Position numbers and translations under genes: made by a program
Shown here: positions 1 through 55,425 of the stretch, piece by piece
How the letters are laid out: every line of letters begins with the position of its first letter
Position numbering within the stretch: the stretch's first letter is position 1
The notes under the pieces: model-generated
Seen by the model: the letters and a program-made list of their open reading frames with translations, nothing else
Told to the model about the DNA's origin: nothing
Database searches by the model: none
Assembly: GCA_020137815.1 (NCBI GenBank)
Contig: CM035360.1
Span: 7,750,001-7,814,000, forward strand
Source of the DNA: Hormiphora californensis
Lineage: Eukaryota; Animalia; Ctenophora
DNA length: 64,000 bases
Direction: 5' to 3'

Positions 1-8894
<8,894 letters not shown>

Positions 8895-9976: not shown

Positions 9977-12900
9977 ATGGTCCTAGTTGTGTTCTTAGTT
10001 TTCCACCTGCTTTCACTGGCACAAGGTGAGGGCACGTCATTGAAACTAGTTGAATGTCTTGTTTTGGCTTTTGGCTTTTGGTGCTTGGGTGGGGGGGATA
10101 GAACGGGAAACTATGAAACGCCCGGGAAAATGGGTAAAGATAAGGGCAGTGTTGTTATTGTCCAGTTTAATATCCTCTTGGTGACGCAGTCACCCCTCCA
10201 CTACCGCGTGCAGCTTGGCAAATGAAGCCCGTGATGGCATCACCAACATATATCCTCCTGTATTGATCCATGTTTCAGGGCTGTCTCATTAGTGATACAG
10301 CTTGGAGCAGCTTCCAGTTTCAAGACCCAACCACCCAGTCATGGAAGTGTCCATCATTATGGAGCATGTACGTTCAACAGAGAGATGAAGAGGAAATCAC
10401 GTGTTTAGATTCTAGTTTTCATGGAAGAATGAGTTTTGTTTGATCAGGTTGTTGCTATCATTATTCTTTGGTAGGTCGGAGTTCGTGTCAGAGAGAACCG
10501 ATTCCTCAGTTTTGCCCCTGGATACAGCTAATTTGACTGCACAGGTGATATTGGATGGGAACACTACAACAATTCAGCTGTGCTCACAAAGTAAGTTCTA
10601 ATCTCTAAACTTTCTACAAAACTATAATAAGAGCACCACATTTTCAGTGACAAAGGGTACACAAAAGTGGCCTCCAGGACCCTACTGTATCCCTACCCCG
10701 GGTAACTGCGGAAGTGGTCTTGTTAAGAAGTCAGTTGTTGTGGTTGCACCTGGGCGTAATTTCACCTGTGGAGATGACCTACCCTTCCAGGACTGCAAGG
10801 AGGGACAATTCTCACTAAACTTGTGCTGCCCAGATGTAAGTGCGATATTTCATATTGTCTTGACTCTTGCTGACAAAGAGGCTCATTTCAGGATCAAACA
10901 GCTGGTGAGGATGGCTATTTGAAAACCACGGCACCAACCCGAGACCCTTTTACCCTTGCAAAGACAGCCTCAACATGCCCCAAAATTTGGGGATTTCGTG
11001 TCACTGAAGAATCGGTTACCATTGGTAACGCGTCAGCTACAAGCGACTATGGAAACTTCACTGACGGCTCCTCACTTGACCATCTGGTCTTGAAATTCTG
11101 TCATTACAATAACAGTAAGTTTGTGATTCCCACTTCCTCCCATAATGTTGTCCTTGTTTCCTCTCACTATATGTAAATCTCTACTCTCCCTTCAGTAACG
11201 TGTCCATGGGCTCCAGCAAACGATTACGCTAGTCCGGCGACTTTTGACGACTGCAATCAACAAGAATTTATGATGTGCAAATCTGGCTATAAAGCACAGC
11301 CTGAAAATTCTAATAAATTTTACTGGAACCACTGTTTAGAATCGGGGCTATACGAATCAGATGAGTACTGCGGAGGTTAGTATTATGCTTAGCGGTAAGG
11401 ATAATGGTTATAGCGGTGAGGATAATGATGATTGTGGTGAGGAAATATTGTACGTATTATCTAGTTCATCATCCACCTCATGTTCCCCTGCAGCCCAGTG
11501 TCCAGATATAACGCCAACTGTTGATAATGGGACGGCCACCCAGGACTCAGATGGTATATGGCATGTGACATGTGATATTGGTCACGTGCTAAATGGACCA
11601 GTCAGTTCAGAGTGTCTGAGGAATGGGAGCTGGTCACATGACCTTAACACTACCACCTGTACCTACTGTGAGTTGTAAACTAGTCCATTGTATCTAGAGA
11701 TGACTATATTTCAACTACCCCACAGTGAAGTGCAAAACCAGTGCTCTACCCCGGGGTGGAAACAGAGCAAAGGGGGTTACAGACGGTTCGAAGGATCCCT
11801 ACGCGTATGGGCACAATGTCTCCATTGCTTGTAGAAGACCTGGCAGAGAGTGAGTACACAATTATAAGCATTTCTATTTGTCCTTGGAGGCAACAGTTGT
11901 AACTGAACCTCAGTTTTTAATATATTATATTAATGCCTAATGCCTATTTAGACCTGAACATAGCCATGTTTTCACCCGCTGTTTAGAAGCATACCCTCTC
12001 TATACCATCCTCTCTTCCAACCTCTCTCTCTGCAGACATTGCGACTACTACCCGGACTATGTGCTGACACATAACACAACATGTCTTGCCAATGGTTCCT
12101 GGAGCTACATTCCCAGATGCTTAGTAGGAGGTAATATCATGCAGAACAGCTGAGTGGGTAGCTTACAATATAACTTGCAACAATTATAATTTCAAAACAG
12201 CCATTTAAAACCACCATGCTGCTTCATCAAGTTAACATGTGACACTATTCCTCCTGTCAGTTGATTGTGGTGTTCCGGGAAATACCAGCACGGCGAGGGC
12301 TGGTATTAACACTACCGAACTAGTGTGTACTGATACAGTGGTTTACACATGCAATGAACACCATGAAATATCAAACAAGGTATCTGACATGAGTACAACA
12401 GATGAGGTGTTAATAAGGTGGTTAATTTTCAAACTAATTATCTCAGGATACTCCTTGATCTACCGAACCCTCACATAATGAGAGGTAATCCTCTATAACT
12501 ATTACCATAGGACAGTTTGACATTAACGTGCCGGTCCAATGGAACCTGGGATAGGGAACCCCCTGAGTGCCCTATTGTGTTCTGTGACAATCCTACCATC
12601 AACATCACGTAGGTCTAGTTAGATGTCTCCCAGCTTAGAATATGAACTGTGCTCTCTCTACCATACTGCCACAAGCATCTCAGTATCGTGGACAAAGCTT
12701 TATTATTATCAAGGTGTTCCGGTCTTAGTATCAGATGACAATTTATATCAAATGAGAATATTTTATACTGTCCAAACCAGCCGAATGGCGTGATGTTTTT
12801 ATAAACTGAATTATGTATACCTAGTAAAGTTTATCTTTTTAAACACCCCCTTTATAACAGGGACGGCGAGGCAATGATACACTATCCGAACGGCACCATT

Positions 12901-15900
12901 ACACGGGACCCTCCCCCTCTGTTCCTGGCCAACTTCACGATTCACTACGAGTGTGAACCTACCTTTGGACTGATAGGTGATGAGAGGATAACCTGCCAGG
13001 AAAATGGTACCTGGAATGGCACATCAGTAGCTTCTTGCAAACTTGGTTAGTGTTGTGTAGTAGTGATGTTGTGATGTGTTTTAGTACCACTGTATAATGT
13101 ACCTCCCTTCCTCTCTTCCCAGTATCGTGTCCAGTGCCTCCTGTTAATATTGAACATGGACACCGCAATGACACATTGGTGGATCACACTTCCTTCCACC
13201 TCGGAGATCAGGTACATTACACATGCTGCTAGTTACACACAGCTAGACCAGGTACATTACACATGCTGCTAGTTACACACAGCTAGACCAGGTACATTAC
13301 ACATGCTGCTAGTTACACACAGCTAGACCAGGTACATTACACATGCTGCTAGTTACACACAGCTAGACCAGGTACATTACACATGCTGCTAGTTACACAC
13401 AGCTACACCAGGTACATTACACACATGCTGCTAGTTACACACAGCTAGACCAGGTACATTACACATGCTGCTAGTTACACACAGCTAGACCAGGTACATT
13501 GTACACATCATGTTGCTGCCTGCTAGTTACACATGTGGTAAAGAAGTGACACATCATGTGGTAAAGAAGTGACAGATCATTTGGTACAGGAATTACACTA
13601 GCTGCTAGACAATCAAACACAATGTGAACCTCACTTATTGGGCCTCCCCTATAACTGCCCCGAAGACACCTGTTTACAACCCCCTCGGCCCTCCCAGGTA
13701 GAGTATGAGTGTGAAGAGGTCTGTGAATCAGGGATTTGTAATGACGATTACACCCTCAACTACACGGGCCCTATCTCCTGTGTGGAGGATGGGACCTGGG
13801 CTCCCTGCCTTCCGACATGTGATCTTGCAGAGTGCGGTCCACCTCCTGCTGTCGACCATTCTATACCACCTGGTACATACATGTTCCCTTTACATCGTGA
13901 TACACGTCATGTTTGTAGCACATCAGTCCCTTCATTTCCAGCTACAAACAGTTACCAACAGACCCTCCATTACTGATTGAAGCAAGGAAGGGTTTCATAT
14001 TATAATGTTTCTCTAAATCCCCGCCTAACTGTGTTCTGTTCCTTACAACCGGACCCTTCTTTCTCAGCGGGCCCATTCACGGTCCACACGAGGTTGAGTT
14101 ACCAGTGTGAGAGGGGGTTCAGGATATCTGGATCTCACCAGCTGAAGTGCGGCTTCAAGGACGGGATACTGGGCTGGCAGTATAATGGGAAACTTCCTAC
14201 ATGTGATATTAGTGAGTACCTATGAGTTCTCTGAGAAATTATCATGTCACAATGCATTATATCATATCTATATCGAAGATACAAGATGTATATTATTGTT
14301 TGTTAGCTCAAGAACCCATTCCCAGTACCGTGTGTTGCCCCACCAACCAACATTTCTCACGGGACCTATCTGAACACAACTACCTCCTACCTATACGGGG
14401 CTACCCTGGCATTCAACTGCAGTATAGGATACAACTCAACAAAACACCCCTACCCCTCTACCAACAACTACACTACACACTGCTCAGAGGACGAGAAGTG
14501 GCATCCTAAACCTGAGTGAGTCATTTACATGTCATCTAGTTAACCGTGTTGTACCACACTACCCCAGAACTACCCCTCCAACCACACCCCTAACTCAGCC
14601 CCTGAACTACCCCTCCAACCACTTAACTCAGCCCCCAGAACTACCCCTCCAACCACCTAACTCTCCCCCAGAGATACCCCTCTAACCACCTAGCTCACCC
14701 CCTCTCCCCAGAGATACCCTCTCTAACCACCTAACTCACCCCCTCTCCCAGATGTTCCGCAGTACACTGCCTACAACCCGGTATAGCTTACAGTATAGTT
14801 AACGACACAAGATCTCTAATTCCATACGGGGTCTGGATGGAAGTTAGATGTGACACGATCAGGCAGCCTCTGGAGCAGAATATACAGTGTGGGCATGATG
14901 GGGATTGGAAACCACAGATAGGAAACACTCTCATTTCATGCCATGGTATGGTCATTGAGCAGTCAGATTTGTTTTGGAAACTTTCAAACAAACTAAATCA
15001 GTAAAGAATTCATCTTGGTTGGTTGGTTGGTTTCTCTAGCTCTTCATTTGCTTCTTGTCTTCTTGACTTGGTCTGTCTTATCTTATTGACTTGATTTGAC
15101 TTGATTTGACTTGACTTGACTTGACTTGACTTGACTTGACTTGACTTGACTTGACTTGACTTGACTTGACTTGACTTGACTTGACTTGACTTGACTTGAC
15201 TTGACTTGACTTTATCTATCGGTCTACAAGGATCTAGATTTTGGGATATAGGGTTTTGTGGGATTGACCGTACCCACGGAGCCATCAACCAACCAGGCTC
15301 ACGGCAGAGGGACGATGATCACACAAGAAGTTTGTGTGGCCATCGCTGGTACGAAGAGTCACTATGAAATTGTTAGGCATTATCTGACTTCCAAAAAAGG
15401 AGTCAGATACTGCCTGACAATCGCATAGTGACTCCCCCCTCTGGGAACCCGGACCCTCCCACGCCTCCCCCGTATCCTGCTTGCCAGGCAGAATAGGAGT
15501 CAGAGTGAGAGGACCCGGGAACCGCTGATAAACAGCAAAAGGTCTTTCTTCGTCAATTGGCCTACTTGCCAGTAGAATCTCTGGAGGTTGAAGCAGGACA
15601 GTCAGTCACGAGGCAGTGAGACCAAGAGAACCAGACAGGATGGAGAGCCGGAGCACACACGTCTCACTAAAGGCTTACTCCATCTGAAGGATAACAGAAT
15701 CCGCTGAGGGGACGGGTGCGTCCTTGCCCGGTACAAGACCGAGCTCGACATCCGTCTGGACCTCAACGGTAGAGGAATTACCTGACTGGCCAGCTATCCT
15801 CCGTGCTGCCCGGTCTACGACCTGGGAAAGTGCCAGCCAGGATTGGCGTCCAGATTCCTTGATGAGGTCCCTAGTGGCCATGTGCTCACGCACAAGTACA

Positions 15901-17814
15901 TCTAGGAGCTTCACCAAGGCAGCTAGACTGTGGGCCTTGGAGTCTGTCTGGTGTCTCTTGATGTCATCTGCCACGCGAAGGACTCCCCACTTCAGTGCTG
16001 TCAGGTTGTTCGTGACACGGGCTCCTGAAGAAGCAAGGTCAACAGTGACACCCTGAACAGACGCCTCCAGAGAACTGAGCCTCCCCGCAAAAGCGTGAAG
16101 GCCGGCAAGTATTGTAGACAACGCCGCTAGGACGAGGATGCCGACGAAGAGAAGACAGATTTCTACAGGAGAAATCATAGTGTTTACGAAACTTGACAAC
16201 AGCAAGTGAAAACAACAGCAAATCAATAGCAGTAAACGGACAAAGAATCTGCACGTGGTGACCGGTTTTATATAGACCTCCTGGTAGCCATGGTTACTGA
16301 CCAGATTTGGCACACTTCTAGCACGTGCTAGCTTGACAGGGGACTGGAGGGCTGAATTTGGACTCTGTCCAGCACTTTCTGACGCTATGACAGACCCGAT
16401 CTTGAAGAATAATCAAAACTGGGACCGGTGTCTGGCCTGTCACAAGATCAATAATGATGGGGTTTTACAGGAACGGGGCGCGCAATGCACTTTTAATGAT
16501 TAAACCAAACATTGTCAGCCCTAAATATACACAGTGTACATTGTATTGTCGGTCATTCTGTGCTCCACCCAAACATAAACTAGGCGCGATCGGAGTTGTT
16601 GTGATGGGAGATTTAAGTTGAGTTAACAATAAACTTCCTGACATCCCCCTATAGAGTCGCCAGTAACGGACCCTAATGTTGACCCTGCGCGACACACCAA
16701 GTGGATTTTCCTGGGGGTCGGTCTTGCCATGTTCATTGTATTGTTCATGCTGGTGTTGGTGTATGTGATAAAACAAAGGACTGCCAGGAGACGTGAAAAT
16801 AGGGATCCATTCTCAGAACATAACAGATACTCGTGAGTAACAGGAACATTACCGAGGTGTCAACACGGTGTGCGGACTCTAGTGCTACACTCTAAGTCTA
16901 CAGTGGACTCTATATCTAAATTTAGATTTAGATAAAGAGTCCAAATAAGTCTAAACTCTAGGAGGACTCTTTATCTAAAAAGTCTACACAGGGCGGACTC
17001 TTTATCTAAAAAGTCTAAACAAAGTGGACTCTATATCTACATAAATCTAAATTAGATATAGAGTCCGCCTTTCGCCGCGAACTCGAGATTTCGGCCGTTA
17101 GGCCGGAAACGAGAGTTTGCTCTACCCCTATACTGATTTAGAAGTGTTAGGGCCGTTATTTGGGTTCGAGGTTAGGGTTAGGGTTAGTGTTAGGGTTAGG
17201 TTTTGGGTTGGGTTAGGATTTTAGACATAGAGTCCGGGTTGGAGGATTTGGCGCCAAAATGTACTAGAGGACTCTATATCTAAAAATTCTACACAGGGCG
17301 GACTCTTTATCTAAAAAGTCTACACAGGGAGGACTCTTTATCTAAACTTTTTTCAAAATCTAACTGTAGATAAAGAGTCCGTTTTTAGATATAGAGTCCG
17401 CCTTGGATTTAGATAAAGAGTCCGTTAGCACTAGAGTCCGCCCACCGTGTCAACACAAACCAGTAGTTATAGTTAACCCGTCCCCGGCCCCGTTACCCCT
17501 TTAGGGGAAACTCTAACTGAATGGCATCCCATTAATGGGATCCCATCAACAGTAAAACTCTAACTGATAATGGACCACAGTGACGGTTCTTTCTCTGTAT
17601 TCTCTCTGTGTGCGCGCCCAATCAATCAATGCCCGGGCATGCCCAATGTACTGCCTACAGAGAGAATACAGAGAAAGAACCATCACTTTAGTCCATTATC
17701 AGTTAGAGTTTTACTGTTGATGGGATCTCATTAATGGGATGCCATTCAGTTAGAGTTTCCCCTTACCCCGTTCTGTTTGTTTTGGATCCACACCTACTAA
17801 ACATAAAAAATATA

Positions 17815-17845
<31 letters not shown>

Positions 17846-18978
17846 TTGAGTAACAACAACTCTCCCCAGAATGAATCCAGCCTACAGTGCAGAAAATAAT
17901 GCCCTAAGTGGGTTCAGTAACCCTAACTACGAAGGTAATAACTTAACAAATATGAAATATATACAAGTGCTAAAGCACTATTGTCATAGTGTCACACAGT
18001 ATACACTTGTCAGTCAGACGCGAGTAATAATCAGTAGATAATTTCCCGATCGGGGTTGCGGAAAGTGACAGAGAGGGCTCTCGAGAGAACGGGTGTTCGA
18101 CTAGTTCTCTGAATACCCCATTCCCAGGTGAGAATGGTGGTTTCCCACTGGCTCCACAAGGGACTGCTCCAGGGGGACGACTCATTCTGAAAGAGGCTGA
18201 GGGACATTCCCTACCAATTGGGTTCTCTAACAGACTAAACGAAGAGTAAGAACTAAAATACCTTTGTGCATTGAAACAACTTGAACTACCTACTAATTGT
18301 AGTAATATGTTGCTGTGTTCTCCCCTATATCCCCCATCCCAGGCCTGCTACATATGACACTCTAGCGAGGGTAAAGGGAGGTAACAGTCCAGGAGGTGAT
18401 ATAGCTATAGCTGCTGATGGACAATACAACACTCTGCCGGCAGCAAGGGGAGAGAACACTCAGGAGGAGGAGGAAGATTTGTACAATATCCCTACTGCAT
18501 CTTCTCAAAAACAGGTAGGATCATTTTGAGACACGTAACATTACCATCATAACCTGTATCATTCTCTCAGCAGCCCCAGCAACAGAGCACGCTGAAGAAT
18601 GATTATGTGACACACCCCCGAGTTAGAGGGAGTCAGATAGTTGCAGAGGATGAAGAGGAGGATATCTATAATGTGCCAACACTTAGACGAGGCCCTAACT
18701 ACCTACCACCCGATTTGTACGTGATATCTCTCTCAAATAACATATATGTAGCTAAATAGTACACCTCCCTTCCTATAACACTCGACTGTAATGTGTCACC
18801 CTTGAAACGCTCTATTTCTTTACTTTCTTGATAGAGACCATTATCAAAACACCCCCGCAGGATGTTGAGTGATGATGAGCAAGAGGTAAATGCAGTGTAC
18901 GCCAGCAGAACCGCAGCGGAGATATGCGGAACACCCATAGAGACTGATTTTGACAACATTATATACGACAATATCTAG
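9977..18978 (+). CDS. Type I membrane protein: signal peptide, ApeC (apextrin C-terminal)-like domain, about ten Sushi/CCP modules, TM helix, Tyr-motif cytoplasmic tail
   Basis: Signal peptide MVLVVFLVFHLLSLAQ|G. ApeC-like WPPGPYCIP..C...LP...LCC...PFTL....CP.I.GF.V..E.V...LKFCHY in exons 10648-11114. CCP motifs (C..P...NG...Y.C..G...C..NG.W....P.C) across 11196-16680. TM VGLAMFIVLFMLVLVYVI followed by KQRTARRR (~16717-16790). Tail ends IIYDNI* at 18978. Confidence 0.8.
13209..13500 (+). repeat. 40-bp minisatellite whose unit contains the intron donor (CAG|GTACAT), 8 donor copies
   Basis: Unit caggtacattacacatgctgctagttacacacagctagac; the first copy is the exon/intron junction at 13211/13212. 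Confidence 0.95.
14555..14751 (+). repeat. Degenerate ~35-40 bp tandem repeat of branch point + pyrimidine tract + CAG
   Basis: Repeated ctacccctccaaccac..ctaactca..ccccag, ending at the acceptor ctctcccag|ATGTTCC. Confidence 0.85.
15086..15211. repeat. (GACTT)n / (CAAGT)n pentanucleotide microsatellite
   Basis: Direct repeat run. Confidence 0.95.
15675..16178 (-). CDS. Intronless 167-aa ORF (N-terminal hydrophobic helix, then helical/coiled-coil-like region), antisense within an intron of the ApeC-Sushi gene
   Basis: ATG 16178, MISPVEICLLFVGILVLAALSTILAGL...; GC-richer than the host introns; TATATAAAA on the minus strand at 16266-16274. No recognisable family. Confidence 0.45.
   Translation of the reverse strand: MISPVEICLLFVGILVLAALSTILAGLHAFAGRLSSLEASVQGVTVDLASSGARVTNNLTALKWGVLRVADDIKRHQTDSKAHSLAALVKLLDVLVREHMATRDLIKESGRQSWLALSQVVDRAARRIAGQSGNSSTVEVQTDVELGLVPGKDAPVPSADSVILQME
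16866..17447. mobile_element. MITE with subterminal GGACTCT(A/T)TATCTA repeats and an internal TTAGGG-like tract
   Basis: TIRs (c)ggtgtgcggactctagtgcta / tagcactagagtccgcccacc(g). Flanking direct repeat (g)tgtcaaca(c), an 8-10 bp TSD. Near-identical inverted copy at 54778-55352. Confidence 0.9.
17504..17762. mobile_element. PIF/Harbinger (Tourist)-type MITE
   Basis: ~105 bp TIRs starting GGGGAAACTCTAACTGA; TTA on both flanks (17501-17503 and 17763-17765). Confidence 0.9.
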
Positions 18979-19803: not shown

Positions 19804-22276
<2,473 letters not shown>

Positions 22277-22961: not shown

Positions 22962-25016
22962 AAGGAACCATAATAAAGTTCAAGAGCCTCCAAGAGCGCA
23001 CCACAATCAAGAGAGACCAAAATCAAGAGCACACCAAGGGCGACATCCCATCTATTATCCTACATGAGGCCAGGGAGCAACTATGCTACCCACTGTGGAT
23101 ACTGTGGAATGCGTCCTTTGATCGTGGATTCATCCCCGATGAGCTGAAGAGGCAACAGATTGCCCCGATTTTCAAGAAGGGGGACAAGAGCCTCCCAGAG
23201 AACTACCGACCAGTAGCACTAACGAGCCACGTTACAAAAACATTCGAACGAGTGGTAAGGCAGCAACTGGCTGATTTTGTGGAAAGGGCAGGGATCATCA
23301 ATGAGGAGCAGCATGGATTCCGGTCAGGGAGGAGCTGTTTGACGCAACTACTCCACCACTACGATGCAATCCTGGAGGATCTGAACAACGGCCACGAAGT
23401 AGATGTGGCCTATATAGATTTCGCTAAAGCGTTTGACAAAGTCGATATACGCATCCTACTGGGCAAGCTACGAAGATATGGTATCCGGGGTAAACTGTTA
23501 AACTGGATCGAGGCTTTCCTAACAGGGAGGTCGCAGACGGTAGTGCTGGAAGGGCATTGTTCCAGACCAGAATACGTTATCAGTAGTGTCATCCAGGGCT
23601 CAGTGCTGGGTCCACTTCTTTTCATAATCTATGTAAGTGACCTGGCGTCTTGTACGATGGGTGGTACCTTAACGTTTGCCGACGACACCAAGAGCCGACA
23701 AGGTATTGAAGAAGCAAAGGACACGATCCTACTCCAAGGAGATCTCGACAGGATAGCGGATTGGTCAGAGAGAAACAACATGCTCTTACACAAGGACAAG
23801 TTCGAGATTCTAAATTACACGCTCAATAAAACAAAATTGTTGAGAGTCCTTCCATTCAATGTAGAATACTACCGATACTACAATTCAGTGGGAGATGAAA
23901 TTAGCCCTGCCTACTGTGTGAAAGATCTTGGCATCCACATGAACAACGACGCATCGTGGACCACACACATTGATGTCATCACCCGTGAAGCCAAAAGACT
24001 AGCTGGATGGGTTCTTGGAGTATTTAGAGACAGGTCTGCACCGACATTGGTCCTCCTACTGAAATCACTCATCAGACCGAAGCTGGAATACTGCTCGCCC
24101 CTGTGGTCGCCATGCAAAGTGGGAGACATCGCAAAGATTGAGAATATCCAACGTTTTTTCACTCGAAGGATTGCCGACTGCAAAGGCAAAAACTACTGGG
24201 AACGATTGGAACATCTGCAGATCCTATCACTACAACGAAGACGAGAACGGTACCCATGATAATTCACATGTGGAAAATCTACCAGGGATTAGCACCGAAC
24301 AGCACAAACATATCGTTCTACGTTCACCAGCGGCACGGCCCAAAGGCAGTTGTCCCCCGTCTCATAACAACGGCCCAAAAATCAGTGCAGACGCTACGAG
24401 ATGCGTCTTTCGGGGTTAGGGCGGCCCAACTCTTCAATAGGATGCCGGACGACGTACGACTGGCACCATCTCTTGACAGCCTGAAAGTTCGACTTGGAGA
24501 CTTCCTCGCTACAGTCCCCGACTTTCCACCTGTCAGAGGCTACACAAGCCCCCGAGATAATTCCCTGGTAGCCCGTCTCACCGAGGGAAAGTAGGTTCAT
24601 TTAGGCCACCTCACTGTTTTGTTCACGCGGAAGTTCTGCTGAGTGCGTTGTATGACTTATGAATTGTACATACTAAAACTTTTTTGTAATCTTGTAATCT
24701 TGTAATCAAGAGAGACCAAAATCAAGAGCACACCACAATCAAGAGAGACCAAATCAAGAGGGCACCACAATCAAGAGAGACCAAATTCAAGAGCGCACCA
24801 CATCTGGTATCTTCTGGATAGGGAGCTCTCTTGGATGAGGTGCGCTCTTGATTTGGTCTCTCTTGATTGTGGTGCGCACTGCGCTCTTGATTTGGTCTCT
24901 CTTGATTGTGGTGTGCTCTTGATTTTGGTCTCTCTTGATTGTGGTGTGCTCTTGATTTTGGTCTTTCTTGATTGTGGTGCGCTCTTGGAGGCTCTTGAAC
25001 TTTATTATGGTTCCTT
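22962..25016. mobile_element. Foldback element with ~33-bp subterminal tandem repeats, interrupted by a LINE
   Basis: TIR aaggaaccataataaagttcaagagcctccaagagcgcaccacaatcaag at 22962, with its reverse complement ending at 25016. Repeats (caccacaatcaagagagacc...) flip orientation at ~24810. Confidence 0.85.
23037..24707 (+). mobile_element. 5'-truncated CR1-group LINE (reverse transcriptase and C-terminal region)
   Basis: PIFKKGDK..PENYRPVALTS, QHGFRSGRSCLTQL, YIDFAKAFDKV, QGSVLGPLLF, FADD, LIRPKLEYCSPLWSP, LSLQRRRERY. Frame change at ~24255; (CTTGTAAT)n tail at 24684-24707. Confidence 0.93.
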
Positions 25017-32310: not shown

Positions 32311-39295
<6,985 letters not shown>

Positions 39296-49584: not shown

Positions 49585-52500
49585 AAAGAGAGAGACGAGA
49601 GAAAGAGAAGGGTAAAGAAATTTTTAAGGAGAAGAGGAACGAGCTGGGTTTTTGGGTAGAAAAAAGTTTCCCGATATAAGAAAGGGGAAACAAAGGATAG
49701 TGAGAGAGAGAGAAGGAACTGGGTAGTGGTGGGGAGGAAAAGAACGGGGGATCATGCCTTGTTTCCCCATCCTTTTAATCTGCCTCAGCAGCTTGGCATT
49801 AAGTTCATATTTTTACTTTCCCAAGGCATGGTTCTTTCTTATCCCTTTTTTTCTTCGTCCAAAGGGGGTTTTGGAGCATTGAACTGAAAAGAAGGGTTTA
49901 TCTGAGGAAAGCTTTGGTGGGTCTGGGAGAAAAAGAGATAAAGAGATAAAACAAAAGATCAAAAAAAAATAAAAAGTAGGAGGAATTTAAAGATGAGAGA
50001 AAAAGGTTTCGGGAGGGGGAGGAAAGGGGGGGTTCGGTAAAAAGAGGAGAGAGAGAGTGAGAAGGGAAAAGGGGGAAGAGAAAAAAGATACCAAAGAAAG
50101 GTGGGGAGAGATTGCCCTGAAAATCAGAATATTTTATGGCTCTCTCTCAATAGGAAAGGGGGCTTTTCAAAATCTTTCCTTTTCATACCTTTTCCTCCCT
50201 TTTTTAAAAAAGAGAAGAAGAAGAAAATAAGGGACTTGAAAAAAAAAAAACAAAAATTTAAAAGATTTGGAAAATTTTTTTTTCAAACTCAAATAAACAA
50301 TTTTTAGGGGAGAGGGGGGGGGGGGGTTAAAAAAGGGAAGAGAATTTTAGAGAAGAGTGAAGAGATCGACGTAGATTATTATCGGTAATAGGAGCATAGA
50401 CTAGAGAAGGAGAAAGAAAAGTTGTATTGCGACACACATCCCATTTACAGTCTGCACATTAGCAGCTAATGCTAATGCTGGAGTGTTATGAAAAAGTGAG
50501 CGAGAGAGAAAAGGAAGATGCAGTAGCTGTAGTCTATATAAAAGGTATAATAATCCCCTTTCCAGTTCTCTCTCCGTGCCGGCATATTTGGGAAGATTGG
50601 AGTAAAACTTGAAATCGAGTATGCCCGTTTTAGTCTGAGAGAGACAGCTTGTTGCTTGTGCGTGTAGGTGAGAGAGATGGAGAGAGAGATGATATCCCGT
50701 GGGAGAGAGAGAGGTCGTGCGGTACCGCCAACTATCCCTCGAGAGTACTTGCGGAGCAGAGAGCTATCTTTCTCTCTCGCCTCTCTCTCTTGCTTCTCTG
50801 CTTACTCGCTCTCGCCCCCTACTCGTCTTCCCCTCGAGAGACTCTCTCTAGATACTCTACGATAGAGAGAAGAGAGAGAGAATGATGTGGACAGTTCAGG
50901 GATGCTCAATCAATAGAAAGGGGCTGTAATGTGACAGAAGAAATGCGTAACCATGACGTGCAGTACCTATTTCTACAAAGTACAATTATTATTTTAAATA
51001 AGAGAACGAATGAAGATAATCATCAAGAAGGAGCTTGTAAAAAAAGGAAAAATCATAATATAATAAGATTTGGGATTGGATATTTTAAAATCAATCTACA
51101 ACTTGCGAACCATTTGTACTGGGTAGAGTGGGGGGGGGGGGTTTCATTAGTCATTACCATTTACCATTCTATTACCGTTCTATTACATACATACACGCCA
51201 CGTACTAAGGTGTTGTTGGAACCTGATTGTACCTGATCGGTAGACACCTCGAGAAGTGTGGAGGCGTGGGTGTTGTTGGAACCTGATTGTACCTGATCGG
51301 TAGACACCTCGAGAAGTGTGGAGGCGTGGGTGTAGTTGTCATTACACGCCACTGCTGCACTTAGAGACATCTGAAACATAATCAACTGATTAGATGAGCT
51401 GATCAGCAGTAAATCAAACTGGCAAGCTCCTTCGATACATCATTTCTATATCACCCTTTCAATTCGTCCCCACCCACATTGGTCCAAATATTTTGAGCGT
51501 GAAGAATTGGGTAACTGAAACTACAGAGAGACAGCTGACTAGATATAACCACGTCTGAAGAGGTTATAATCACCTTACTTTCTGTGATTCTAACGAATAG
51601 CAGAAATATAAAATATTTTGTTCTGTAAACATGCCTAAGTAACTGAGTGTCGTACAGTTAGCTACTGGTCCCCCACCCCCTGAAAAATCTGCAATTGCGT
51701 TTCTTTTCTCTATCACACTTTCCTGTTCTCTTTCAACATCTCTTTCACCATCTCTTTCTATCCTTGTCTCTGATTTCTCATAGAGGCCCTTTATAACTTG
51801 ATGAATGGAAATCAATATTGAAGATTGCCCTCGACTTTAGAGTTTAGAGTTCATTTTCTCTATCTCCATCCTTCTTATTTCTCTCTTTATAGTTTATTTT
51901 TCTGTCTCATAGTTCTCCAATAATTAAGCACACCTTTGCAAACCGAAGAGAAACAACACGGTGGTTTAACTTTCTGTAAGCGTAAGCGAGATTGTGGTAT
52001 GGTATGGCAAGGTGTTGTTGATTGATTGACGATTGATCTCCAGAGTCCTTAGCAGCATAGGTTTTAAGAATCTTGATCTGTTCTGTAAAACAATGGAGTG
52101 CTCCTTTATAATCACGAAGTGTCATGTACACCAGGCCAAGACCACCTGTGGAATTACAACTCGAGTTACCCACGTGTTTGCAAAATATATAAAACATGAT
52201 TGTAAAAGATTTTACAAAATAAGTTTTGGTACTATAACAACAATAGATATACTGTTCCCTGAATGGAAATTAAGCAGATCTTGTCACGTTACTAAATCCT
52301 ACCAAGGGAATTTTGAAACATCATCTGATCGTCTGTAGAAGAGGCTATGTCAAGGGCTTGGAGGAAATGGTCTGTTGCTTTTGTTAATCGTGTCTGGCCA
52401 AAATAAGCATTTCCCAAACTAATTTGACTGAAAACAAGAGTTTGTAATTGACAAGAAATACGTTTTACAAAATTCGAAACAATGGTGCGTGTTAGTGCTA

Positions 52501-52895
52501 AAATGCTAGCTTCTATGAAGTTCTTGATCTACCGAATCCTCACAGAGATGTGAGCCACACAAGGAAGTTCCTACTTACCAGTTCCCCGTTAGAGCTTGTG
52601 TCGGAGCTATTTTCAGGGCTTCTTTTGCATCTTTTATTGCTTCGTCAAAGGAACCCAATCGTTCATTAGCCCCACTTGATAAGATGAGAGCACAACAAAA
52701 CCAAGATGTCGGGAAACAGGTATATTTTGAGAGTTTTATCATTCGCCTGCAGTTTTGCAAGGCTTCAGTTAGGTTACCATTCGTCACATTCTTCCTGTAT
52801 TGCTGATAAACCTCGGCATATCTTGAATTTGGTTCAACTGGATAGAGATTGTTGCTTGAATAGTTCATGCTTTCCACAATACTTTTACTTTCCAT
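44280..52895 (-). CDS. RAPSN: Rapsyn-like TPR-repeat protein with C-terminal RING-H2; middle exons corrupted or uncertain
   Basis: TPR exons: NERLGSFDEAI..; QISLGNAYFG..KATDHFLQALDIASSTDDQM; LGLVYMTLRDYKGAL..YHNLAYAYRKL; FTDMSCKEGLCKLAFRRAK|LLV..PLMQLK. RING exons 45066-44991 and 44403-44280 (FCG..PERLNILPCGHICHTR|C...CPVKNC) are joined by a GC-AG intron. The order parallels recalled vertebrate rapsyn. Linking all exons into one gene is inferred. Confidence 0.62.
44411..44795 (-). repeat. 22-bp minisatellite containing the ACTAAC branch point, next to an acceptor
   Basis: Minus-strand unit tagttaactaacccctgaccgc, about 16 copies, ending ccgccacttccag|G at 44404. Confidence 0.95.
51210..51332. 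repeat. 60-bp tandem duplication spanning an exon end and donor
   Basis: The segment acctgatcggtagacacctcgagaagtgtggaggcgtgggtgt occurs twice; on the minus strand it reads CAG|GTACAA twice. Confidence 0.85.
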
Positions 52896-53023
52896 CTTCT
52901 GTGAGATTTGTTACAAATACTTTAAAAGCGGTTCGGGACAACAAGTGAAAAATCATGTTAAGATTTTGAACTGGAGAGCATATAAGCTAGAAAAGTTATA
53001 GCATGAATAGACCCAATTGAAAT

Positions 53024-54777: not shown

Positions 54778-55352
54778 GGTGGGCGGACTCTAGTGCTAAC
54801 GGACTCTTTATCTAAATCCAAGGCGGACTCTATATCTAAAAACGGACTCTTTATCTACAGTTAGATTTTGAAAAAAGTTTAGATAAAGAGTCCTCCCTGT
54901 GTAGACTTTTTAGATAAAGAGTCCGCCCTGTGTAGAATTTTTAGATATAGAGTCCTCTAGTACATTTTGGCGCCAAATCCTCCAACCCGGACTCTATGTC
55001 TAAAATCCTAACCCAACCCAAAACCTAACCCTAACACTAACCCTAACCTCGAACCCAAATAACGGCCCTAACACTTCTAAATTAGTATAGGGGTAGAGCA
55101 AACTCTCGTTTCCGGCCTAACGGCCGAAATCTCGAGTTCGCGGCGAAAGGCGGACTCTATATCTAATTTAGATTTATGTAGATATAGAGTCCACTTTGTT
55201 TAGACTTTTTAGATAAAGAGTCCGCACTGTGTAGACTTTTTAGATAAAGAGTCCTCCTAGATTTTAGACTTATTTGGACTCTTTATCTAAATCTAAATTT
55301 AGATATAGAGTCCATTGTAGACTTAGAGTGTAGCACTAGAGTCCGCACACCG
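54778..55352. mobile_element. Inverted second copy of the 16866-17447 MITE
   Basis: Near-exact reverse complement; gtagggggg on both flanks. Confidence 0.9.
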
Positions 55353-55425
55353 TAGGGGGGCGAGGATATTAATACTTTTACTTATGAGTATAGATGACGT
55401 TGTATAGCTAACACAGTTAACGGTA

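Follow-up and report, generated by a model that had tools for sequence, protein, structure and literature searches.

A conserved comb-jelly gene predicted to encode a kinase-less receptor with an ApeC-derived head, a Sushi stalk and a tyrosine-motif tail

ApeC proteins, among them amphioxus ACP1, ACP2, ACP3 and ACP5, oyster CgACP1, snail BgACP1 and the apextrins, share an extracellular domain of about 190 amino acids with eight cysteines and the landmarks W-P-x-G-x-Y-C, C-C, F-x-L and C-x-Y. The members that have been studied are secreted lectins and not signalling receptors, and membrane-bound ApeC proteins as well as more than 20 ApeC architectures have already been reported (PMC9585378, PMC8361754; here and below, statements on papers cited by number refer to the part of the text that was available). 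The present analysis concerns one gene in a stretch of 64,000 nucleotides from the ctenophore Hormiphora californensis (assembly GCA_020137815.1, contig CM035360.1, positions 7,750,001 to 7,814,000, forward strand), which we call the window and in which all positions are given. The predicted product of this gene carries a signal peptide, a cysteine-rich head, a stalk of Sushi or complement control protein (CCP) modules, one transmembrane (TM) helix and a tail with many tyrosine motifs. The head shares the ApeC-type domain, with the cysteines and landmarks in the same order, and differs from it by the absence of all three DxED motifs, an extra pair of cysteines and a score below Pfam detection.

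Similar architectures occur in corals. Two uncharacterised coral database entries (Desmophyllum pertusum KAJ7370799.1 and Acropora XP_074612298.1; P0010 and P0035 in our set) likewise combine an N-terminal ApeC domain with one TM helix, but their ApeC is canonical, a CUB domain and a Ser/Thr stalk replace the CCP modules, and their tails are unrelated to the present one and were missed by the tail search. The Desmophyllum entry contains, over residues 26-1535, three ApeC units with a Ser/Thr stalk and a TM helix, two of them with a CUB domain, and it appears to be a fusion of three tandem genes within a single model. Its acidic tails hold 4, 4 and 2 NPxY motifs and 5-11 tyrosines each. These units indicate that a further early-branching lineage has ApeC-headed receptors whose tails carry tyrosines.

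Other receptors resemble the present protein in their mode of working. CED-1, Draper and MEGF10 also have a recognition domain carried by a repeat stalk, a TM helix and a kinase-less tail with a membrane-proximal NPxY and a distal YxxL, but Pfam found neither an EMI domain nor EGF/NIM repeats here, and we do not regard them as homologous. Draper, MEGF10 and CED-1 use NPxY together with an ITAM (immunoreceptor tyrosine-based activation motif) or YxxL, and Draper-II has the inhibitory counterpart, an ITIM (PMC8092387). DCBLD1 and DCBLD2 are kinase-less single-pass receptors with conserved YxxP sites, which Src-family kinases and Abl phosphorylate and to which CRK/CRKL bind (PMC6029619). Their CUB, LCCL and discoidin ectodomain is not found here by Pfam, homology is absent, and only two YxxP sites are conserved in the ctenophore tail. 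Lastly, selectins, Drosophila Furrowed and Tribolium CTL15 place a ligand-binding domain on many CCP modules followed by a TM helix, and Furrowed and CTL15, in which a lectin domain is joined to many CCPs, have roles in adhesion and immunity (PMC9954269). In contrast to these proteins, the ctenophore head shows no C-type lectin domain in Pfam, and the tail has 226 amino acids whereas selectin tails are short.

The coding span (9977-18978, + strand) comprises 23 predicted exons with 3207 nt, encoding a type I membrane protein of 1068 amino acids. The exons were placed by eye across the three reading frames and then checked by script. The model reads as follows, with the basis of each assignment in brackets:

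9977-10025, + strand: exon 1, signal peptide (hydropathy); its donor is the least certain position of the model
10301-10367 and 10475-10590, + strand: exons 2-3, first third of the ApeC-derived head with Cys33 and Cys75 (orthologue alignment, cysteine position)
10648-10835, + strand: exon 4, central ApeC module from W-P-x-G-x-Y-C to C-C, with the extra Cys118 and Cys127 (profile score, alignment)
10892-11114, + strand: exon 5, last third of the head with PFxL, Cys169 and FCHY (profile score)
11196-14945, + strand: exons 6-17, nine Sushi/CCP-type modules, residues 215-803 (Pfam, cysteine pattern, identity to Mnemiopsis)
16655-16832, + strand: exon 18, short stalk, TM helix (about 16702-16770) and basic stop-transfer residues (hydropathy, identity to Mnemiopsis)
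17870-17934, + strand: exon 19, NPAY (17874-17885) and NPNY (17919-17930) (tail alignment)
18128-18245, + strand: exon 20, poorly conserved tail linker (tail alignment)
18343-18514, + strand: exon 21, YDTL (18353), YNTL (18425) and acidic LYNIP (Tyr at 18482) (tail alignment)
18571-18716, + strand: exon 22, conserved NxY and acidic IYNVPTL (Tyr at 18667) (tail alignment)
18861-18978, + strand: exon 23, conserved C-terminus with IIYDNI, then stop (tail alignment)

All 22 introns are of the GT-AG type with consistent phases. A single open frame begins with the ATG at 9977 and closes with the stop at 18976-18978, with no internal stop or frameshift in its 3207 nt, and the locus is marked by short introns and simple repeats. 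Hydropathy above 1.6 is limited to segments beginning at residues 1-3, the signal peptide, and 817-829, the TM helix. This agrees with the layout of a head at about residues 28-213, a cysteine-repeat stalk at 215-803, a TM helix at about 820-842 and the tail. Indeed, the motifs quoted in the preliminary description all lie at this locus on the + strand, and its proposal of one gene with a signal peptide, a CCP stalk, one TM helix and a kinase-less tail is borne out by the open 23-exon model and by orthologues that match from end to end.

Some junctions are less firmly placed than others. At junction 1, several alternatives score equal to or better than the modelled one against the orthologues, and the 665 alternative 5' junctions that we enumerated did not single out any. 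The position of junction 22 is approximate, and the orthologues are shorter around it. A short tail with a YQN motif at its end would result from an upstream acceptor near 18835; since the orthologues agree with the IIYDNI frame, this variant was not adopted as the main form. The start of intron 13 (13205-13500) consists of 7.3 copies of a 40-nt unit, each of which repeats the exon end and its AG|GT donor and thereby forms a row of decoy donors; the orthologues back the first donor. Both orthologues have isoforms (P0042, P0055) with a difference of five residues where the TM exon begins. Exon 18 has a second in-frame AG nine bases in (16655-16664), and a small alternative acceptor may therefore be shared.

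Two annotated proteins, Mnemiopsis leidyi KAL5249391.1 (ACHWQZ_G018298; P0022) and XP_063690873.1 (P0054), are orthologous to the model along its whole length, although their names, hypothetical and SVEP1-like respectively, miss the ApeC-derived head and the tail motifs. The Mnemiopsis protein of 1054 aa was found by profile search and, over 1114 columns that take in residues 2-1068 of the model, is 40% identical to it (E 0.0). Broken down by region, identity amounts to 76/185 in the head (41%), 249/561 in the stalk (44%), 19/32 at the stalk end and TM helix, and 96/197 in the tail. XP_063690873.1, which by its accession series probably comes from Bolinopsis, also matches end to end at 40% identity. 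The two orthologous heads are 76% identical to each other and 40-41% identical to the window head, which falls outside that pair. In a search with the tail of the Mnemiopsis protein, two of 2319 candidates scored, the protein itself and XP_063690873.1, so that there was one cluster per annotated species. Moreover, tblastn of both orthologues onto the window tiles the modelled exons in order.

Further relatives bridge the exons without introns. A HMMER search with exon 4 in 1.84 billion representative proteins gave six matches, of which three were true relatives and three (P0001, P0004, P0005) were dropped as repeat-driven; exon 4 alone matched none of 16 candidates among longer proteins. An intron-free frame of 252 aa (P0006) aligns nearly without gaps over 245 columns (33% identity, E 2e-46) and spans junctions 4-7, from the head into the CCP stalk. 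In three others (P0002, P0007, P0008) the match ends just after the C-C motif, at the position of the intron in the window, which suggests a shared intron position and an origin of P0006 by splicing. Junctions 10-22 are bridged by P0057 and by L018/P0056, a 593-codon intron-free frame followed by 1240 nt. Altogether, intron-free records cover 17 of the 22 junctions and an annotated orthologue 21 of 22. Searches of the JGI metagenomes confirmed no locus among 57 pattern matches with the P0006 query and one of 580 with the tail query. Judged from these sequence comparisons, the gene is real, intact, conserved and misannotated in public records.

The ApeC-like head named in the preliminary description proved homologous to ApeC by a custom profile and lies below Pfam detection. 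Pfam ApeC (PF16977, gathering score 26.5 bits) gave no match at E 1 in the 22 exon stretches of the window, which were scanned one by one, in P0006 or in the full-length Mnemiopsis protein. A degenerate ApeC motif led to 17 prokaryotic loci, of which all 12 that were scanned matched PF16977, four above the cut-off. The prokaryotic loci carry a four-cysteine central ApeC module with which exon 4 aligns, and the alignment of exon 4 with them fetched 32 proteins, canonical animal ApeC proteins included. Twelve canonical domains, kept from 23 near-complete ones after removal of near-duplicates, make up the ApeC profile.

Against the full model, this profile produced one match of 34.6 bits that joins profile positions 42-202 to residues 55-212. 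The isolated head scored 40.1 bits, and none of 1000 shuffles scored as high in each of three controls, the best shuffle, in which neither the cysteines nor the seed motif were moved, reaching 23.2 bits. For the Mnemiopsis head the score was 30.6 bits (0/1000 shuffles as high) and for that of XP_063690873.1 38.0 bits (0/1000 shuffles with fixed cysteines). Exon 4 alone reached 17.0 bits and exon 5 alone 15.6 bits, again with 0/1000 shuffles as high when cysteines were fixed; exon 5 is the cleaner test of homology because exon 4 was part of the query that fetched the canonical set. In addition, hhalign aligned the head with ApeC over 131 columns at 94.4% (E 9.4e-8), and a reciprocal profile of the ctenophore heads matched snail ApeC proteins at 31-35 bits (best 34.7).

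The canonical eight ApeC cysteines (Cys33, 75, 91, 98, 137, 138, 169 and 210) are kept in all three ctenophore sequences, in a head of about 190 aa after the signal peptide, and the added Cys118/Cys127 pair sits where canonical domains have the second DxED loop. The first and third DxED sites are replaced in exons 2-3 and exon 5, respectively. The reported absence of DxED motifs was thus confirmed in all three ctenophore heads (0/3 each), and three of the 12 canonical domains have none either. Identity between the head and canonical ApeC is 17-25%, as compared to 31-78% among the canonical domains, and the ctenophore heads carry 5-10 N-glycan sequons where six of the 12 canonical domains have none. 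A tree of 13 rows, which leaves out two partial canonical rows, joins the three ctenophore heads on a single long branch (100/100); it is unrooted and does not tell in which order events took place.

The AlphaFold2 model of a canonical ApeC domain is built of beta-strands (predicted local distance difference test, pLDDT, 89.6), and so is that of the Mnemiopsis head; mapped by hand through the alignment, the predicted strands follow the same order in both. The head model is not a blind test because its 14-row input alignment included five canonical rows. Foldseek found no match to the ctenophore head at E 0.001 in the PDB or BFVD (best VIA Z 2.5). The canonical model likewise had no Foldseek match and no Z >= 2 in the PDB; the missing fold matches show neither a new fold nor a difference. 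In sequence searches of the PDB no match had an E-value below 0.14, a solved ApeC structure was not found, the ESM Atlas gave no usable match for exon 4 or residues 1-114 of P0006, and viral contigs contained no match to the ApeC motif. Of the two kinds of evidence by which the preliminary description proposed to judge the head, profile and structure, Pfam and the PDB are therefore silent, whereas the custom profile is significant and canonical ApeC has no PDB match either. Taken at the level of sequence, the head is ApeC-derived, a remote homologue of ApeC. As it has none of the three DxED motifs and stays below the Pfam gathering score, we do not file it as a canonical member of PF16977.

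The stalk consists of nine Sushi-type modules when counted by the cysteine pattern (four cysteines in about 60 residues, with a Trp before the last one), and not about ten as first estimated. The first of them is degenerate, has no Trp and was counted by its cysteines only. Pfam Sushi (PF00084) recognised eight modules in the Mnemiopsis protein (160.7 bits); on the window exons, four of 22 stretches exceeded the cut-off and two more matched weakly. As many as 50 of the 53 cysteines of the model are common to both orthologues, and 13 N-glycan sequons occupy identical positions in all three sequences. In each of modules 1, 3 and 4 a fifth cysteine is conserved as well and could serve to staple modules together or to connect chains. 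The long introns yielded neither a tenth CCP nor alternative CCP exons: all 12 matches of the stalk profile among 2049 six-frame segments are on modelled exons. Neither a second ApeC or CCP gene nor a second copy of the gene was found in the window.

The tail holds no kinase or other domain in a Pfam scan. Nine of its 11 tyrosines are conserved in both orthologues, as compared to 67 of the 215 other residues (Fisher p=0.0011). Up to three positions away from a conserved tyrosine, 32 of 54 residues are conserved, versus 35 of 161 elsewhere (p=9e-7). These values treat columns as independent and derive from one alignment of three sequences, two of which are close relatives. The invariant motifs are the second NPxY, YDTL, YNTL, two YN[IV]P that are each preceded by an acidic run, and IIYDNI at the C-terminus. 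Both NPAY and NPNY are present as originally described, but only the second is invariant in the three full-length sequences, where 38-41 residues separate it from the membrane; in Mnemiopsis the first is NRAY. The last nine residues are identical in all six sequences that reach the C-terminus, and the terminal IIYDNI fits the YxN and ITIM patterns alike.

Motifs of this kind have well-known partners: NPxY is bound by phosphotyrosine-binding (PTB) domains, YxxP by Crk, YxN by Grb2 and the ITIM by SHP2. The conserved islands around tyrosines in an otherwise variable tail resemble short docking motifs, whose partners are predicted only. That the tail docks PTB and Src homology 2 (SH2) adaptors is, on these patterns, a sound inference.

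We consider the chances about even that the gene encodes a kinase-less single-pass phosphotyrosine scaffold receptor, conserved in comb jellies, for a ligand on neighbouring cells or in the matrix. In such a receptor, the nine CCP modules would hold the head off the membrane, as in selectins, and binding of the head to its ligand on a neighbouring cell or in the matrix would cluster the receptor. Upon clustering, tyrosines preceded by acidic runs would be phosphorylated by Src- or Abl-family kinases. The invariant NPxY could then bind a PTB adaptor or the endocytic machinery and the two YxxP sites a Crk-type SH2 adaptor, while the terminal IIYDNI may bind either Grb2 or a phosphatase of the SHP2 type, by which the signal would be reset. 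As with Draper/CED-1 and DCBLD1/2, the expected outcome would be remodelling of actin, adhesion or uptake. An endogenous ligand is slightly ahead of a microbial one because the head is about as conserved as the stalk, because there is one cluster per annotated species in the tail search and no second copy in the window, and because the head is rich in sequons and lacks DxED, whereas immune ApeC genes elsewhere turn over fast.

Several observations speak against this proposal. Exons 2-3 alone score -1.6 bits against the ApeC profile, with 519 of 1000 shuffles as high, and the AlphaFold2 model of the Mnemiopsis head reaches only a moderate pLDDT of 67.5. The gene is only tentatively single-copy, since the search relies on shared exact words. 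None of the three tails has an ITAM, in which two YxxL/I lie 6-12 residues apart; the two YxxL motifs here are 24 residues apart, too far for an ITAM. YxxL also works unphosphorylated as a sorting signal. The same applies to NPxY, which PTB domains bind in the unphosphorylated state too (PMC8092387). Furthermore, the available part of PMC7260276 lists Grb2, Crkl, Sos and Shp2 in Hydra and sponge and not in Mnemiopsis. Lastly, every ApeC protein tested, DxED-less ones included, binds peptidoglycan (PMC9585378, PMC8361754).

The last point also underlies the alternative that survives best, a microbial pattern-recognition or engulfment receptor whose head would bind peptidoglycan or another wall glycan and whose tail would drive phagocytosis in motile immune-like cells. 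We regard this as possible but rather unlikely. All six ApeC proteins in question bind Lys-type peptidoglycan, and two of them, snail BgACP1 (PMC9585378) and amphioxus ACP5 (bfACP5; PMC8361754), did so with all three DxED motifs mutated. The argument from DxED loss is therefore weak, and the earlier suggestion that ligand specificity may differ holds only in part: binding to Lys-type peptidoglycan persists without DxED, while ACP3 and ACP5 do not show the muramyl dipeptide (MDP) binding that ACP1 and ACP2 have (PMC8361754). NPxY together with YxxL is the arrangement of CED-1/Draper, and Draper binds lipoteichoic acid (PMC8092387); a beetle lectin on a CCP stalk binds bacteria (PMC9954269); and Mnemiopsis has phagocytic cells (PMC10998917) and apparently no true Toll-like receptors (PMC11797021). 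However, the identity of the head to canonical ApeC is only 17-25%, its branch in the tree is very long, sequons abound in it, and a disulfide pair has been added where the second DxED loop lies. Immune ApeC genes are lineage-specific, without orthologues across phyla and often dispensable (PMC9585378, PMC12373286), whereas the present gene keeps one layout across distant ctenophores. The one supplement file of PMC11797021 that was searched contains no match to the gene that would tie challenge data to it.

A related idea, which we offer tentatively and hold to be improbable rather than probable, is that comb jellies have independently built a Draper-like engulfment receptor by combining an ApeC lectin as its head with a CCP stalk like that of selectins and a phosphotyrosine tail, and that corals have built a similar one from other parts. 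If this were true, ApeC-headed signalling receptors would constitute an unrecognised class of pattern-recognition receptors in the earliest-branching animals, hidden in ctenophores by their escape from Pfam.

It appears unlikely that the protein is a constitutive endocytic or sorting receptor whose tyrosines act unphosphorylated as clathrin-adaptor and polarity signals, with no phosphotyrosine signalling. The position of the invariant NPxY close below the membrane would suit this role, as would YDTL, YNTL and YDNI, all of which fit YxxPhi, and the binding of unphosphorylated NPxY by PTB domains cited above. Yet the two YxxP and the NxY sites do not fit YxxPhi and are nevertheless conserved with acidic flanks, and nine conserved tyrosines are more than sorting needs. 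Acidic residues before a tyrosine are the usual context of kinase substrates, which also counts against a purely sorting function.

Still less probable is a structural adhesion or matrix protein of the SVEP1 or complement-regulator type, with an unrelated cysteine-rich domain as its head. SVEP1 is a secreted protein defined by vWA, EGF and pentraxin domains. Pfam finds Sushi alone in the ectodomain, XP_063690873.1 was automatically named SVEP1-like, and sushi terms are over-represented among colloblast candidate genes (PMC6278862). But the Mnemiopsis protein has no vWA, EGF or pentraxin domain in Pfam, the gene encodes a TM helix and a conserved 200-aa tail, and the head scores significantly against ApeC in three sequences. 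The architecture thus largely refutes this possibility. Finally, it is hardly credible that separate genes or pseudogenes were over-joined in the model: junctions 8 and 9 are bridged by annotated gene models only and by no intron-free fragment, but the model is collinear with two annotated orthologues and with three fragments that have no introns, and its 3207 nt are free of stops and frameshifts.

Repeats are present in introns 17 and 18. Intron 18 contains a 600-nt element (16857-17456) that has terminal inverted repeats of 31 nt, further 31-nt repeats in its interior and a run of GGTTAG; an inverted copy with 98% identity lies at 54778-55353, and the element is likely a young non-autonomous transposon. 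The same intron holds a near-perfect 107-nt inverted repeat with a 47-nt spacer (17503-17763) that has no second copy in the window. Within the 1709-nt intron 17, a stop-free frame of 245 codons on the - strand (15678-16412) has no Pfam match and adjoins a TTGAC microsatellite and a 34-nt inverted repeat; it is possibly a mobile-element remnant. The other features recorded in the window are:

277-7678, - strand: spectrin-repeat gene with a 1119-codon open frame
19807-20880, - strand: SOCS-box gene, converging on the receptor gene
22964-24591, + strand: reverse-transcriptase frame (read by eye)
33375-37886, + strand: Vps35
51910-52910, - strand: gene with tetratricopeptide repeats (TPR)

ApeC modules were also encountered outside this gene family. 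The 17 bacterial and archaeal loci (L001-L017) encode secreted or membrane proteins that end in a four-cysteine ApeC module, often without DxED. A secreted coiled-coil protein of Bolinopsis microptera (XP_063676262.1, P0039) ends in a single four-cysteine module of this prokaryotic type that closely resembles those of L001, L005, L010 and L017; its sequence may reflect either horizontal transfer or an ancient short form. Five proteins of the sponge Halichondria panicea (P0014, P0043-P0046) combine MACPF with canonical ApeC, the apextrin layout, and have three DxED motifs, whereas the available part of PMC9585378 does not name sponges among the phyla that bear apextrins.

The preliminary description suggested that the architecture may not have been described before, which holds for the combination of ApeC, CCP modules and TM helix as far as the literature found goes, but not for membrane-bound ApeC proteins or for the coral ApeC-CUB-TM proteins with NPxY. 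A literature search returned no ApeC in ctenophores, no ApeC-CCP-TM protein and no described ApeC signalling tail; a survey of 2021 (PMID 33186688) was outside its coverage and may list the architecture. Ctenophores occur nowhere in the main text of PMC9585378 and PMC8361754, the main text of PMC11797021, an immune survey of Mnemiopsis, mentions neither ApeC nor apextrin, and in the available part of PMC10855680 ApeC-containing and sushi terms co-occur in unrelated passages. Because membrane-bound ApeC proteins and more than 20 architectures have already been reported, ApeC receptors as a class are not new.

The present finding extends a full-length ApeC-type domain to the ctenophores and joins it to a membrane-spanning protein with a predicted signalling tail. 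Surveys of ctenophore receptors that are based on domains would miss this gene because Pfam does not detect its head. A head without DxED on an otherwise intact scaffold provides a natural test of the role of this motif. Since the gene has an orthologue in Mnemiopsis, whose phagocytic cells can be isolated, it represents a concrete and testable candidate for a receptor of engulfment or cell contact in comb jellies.

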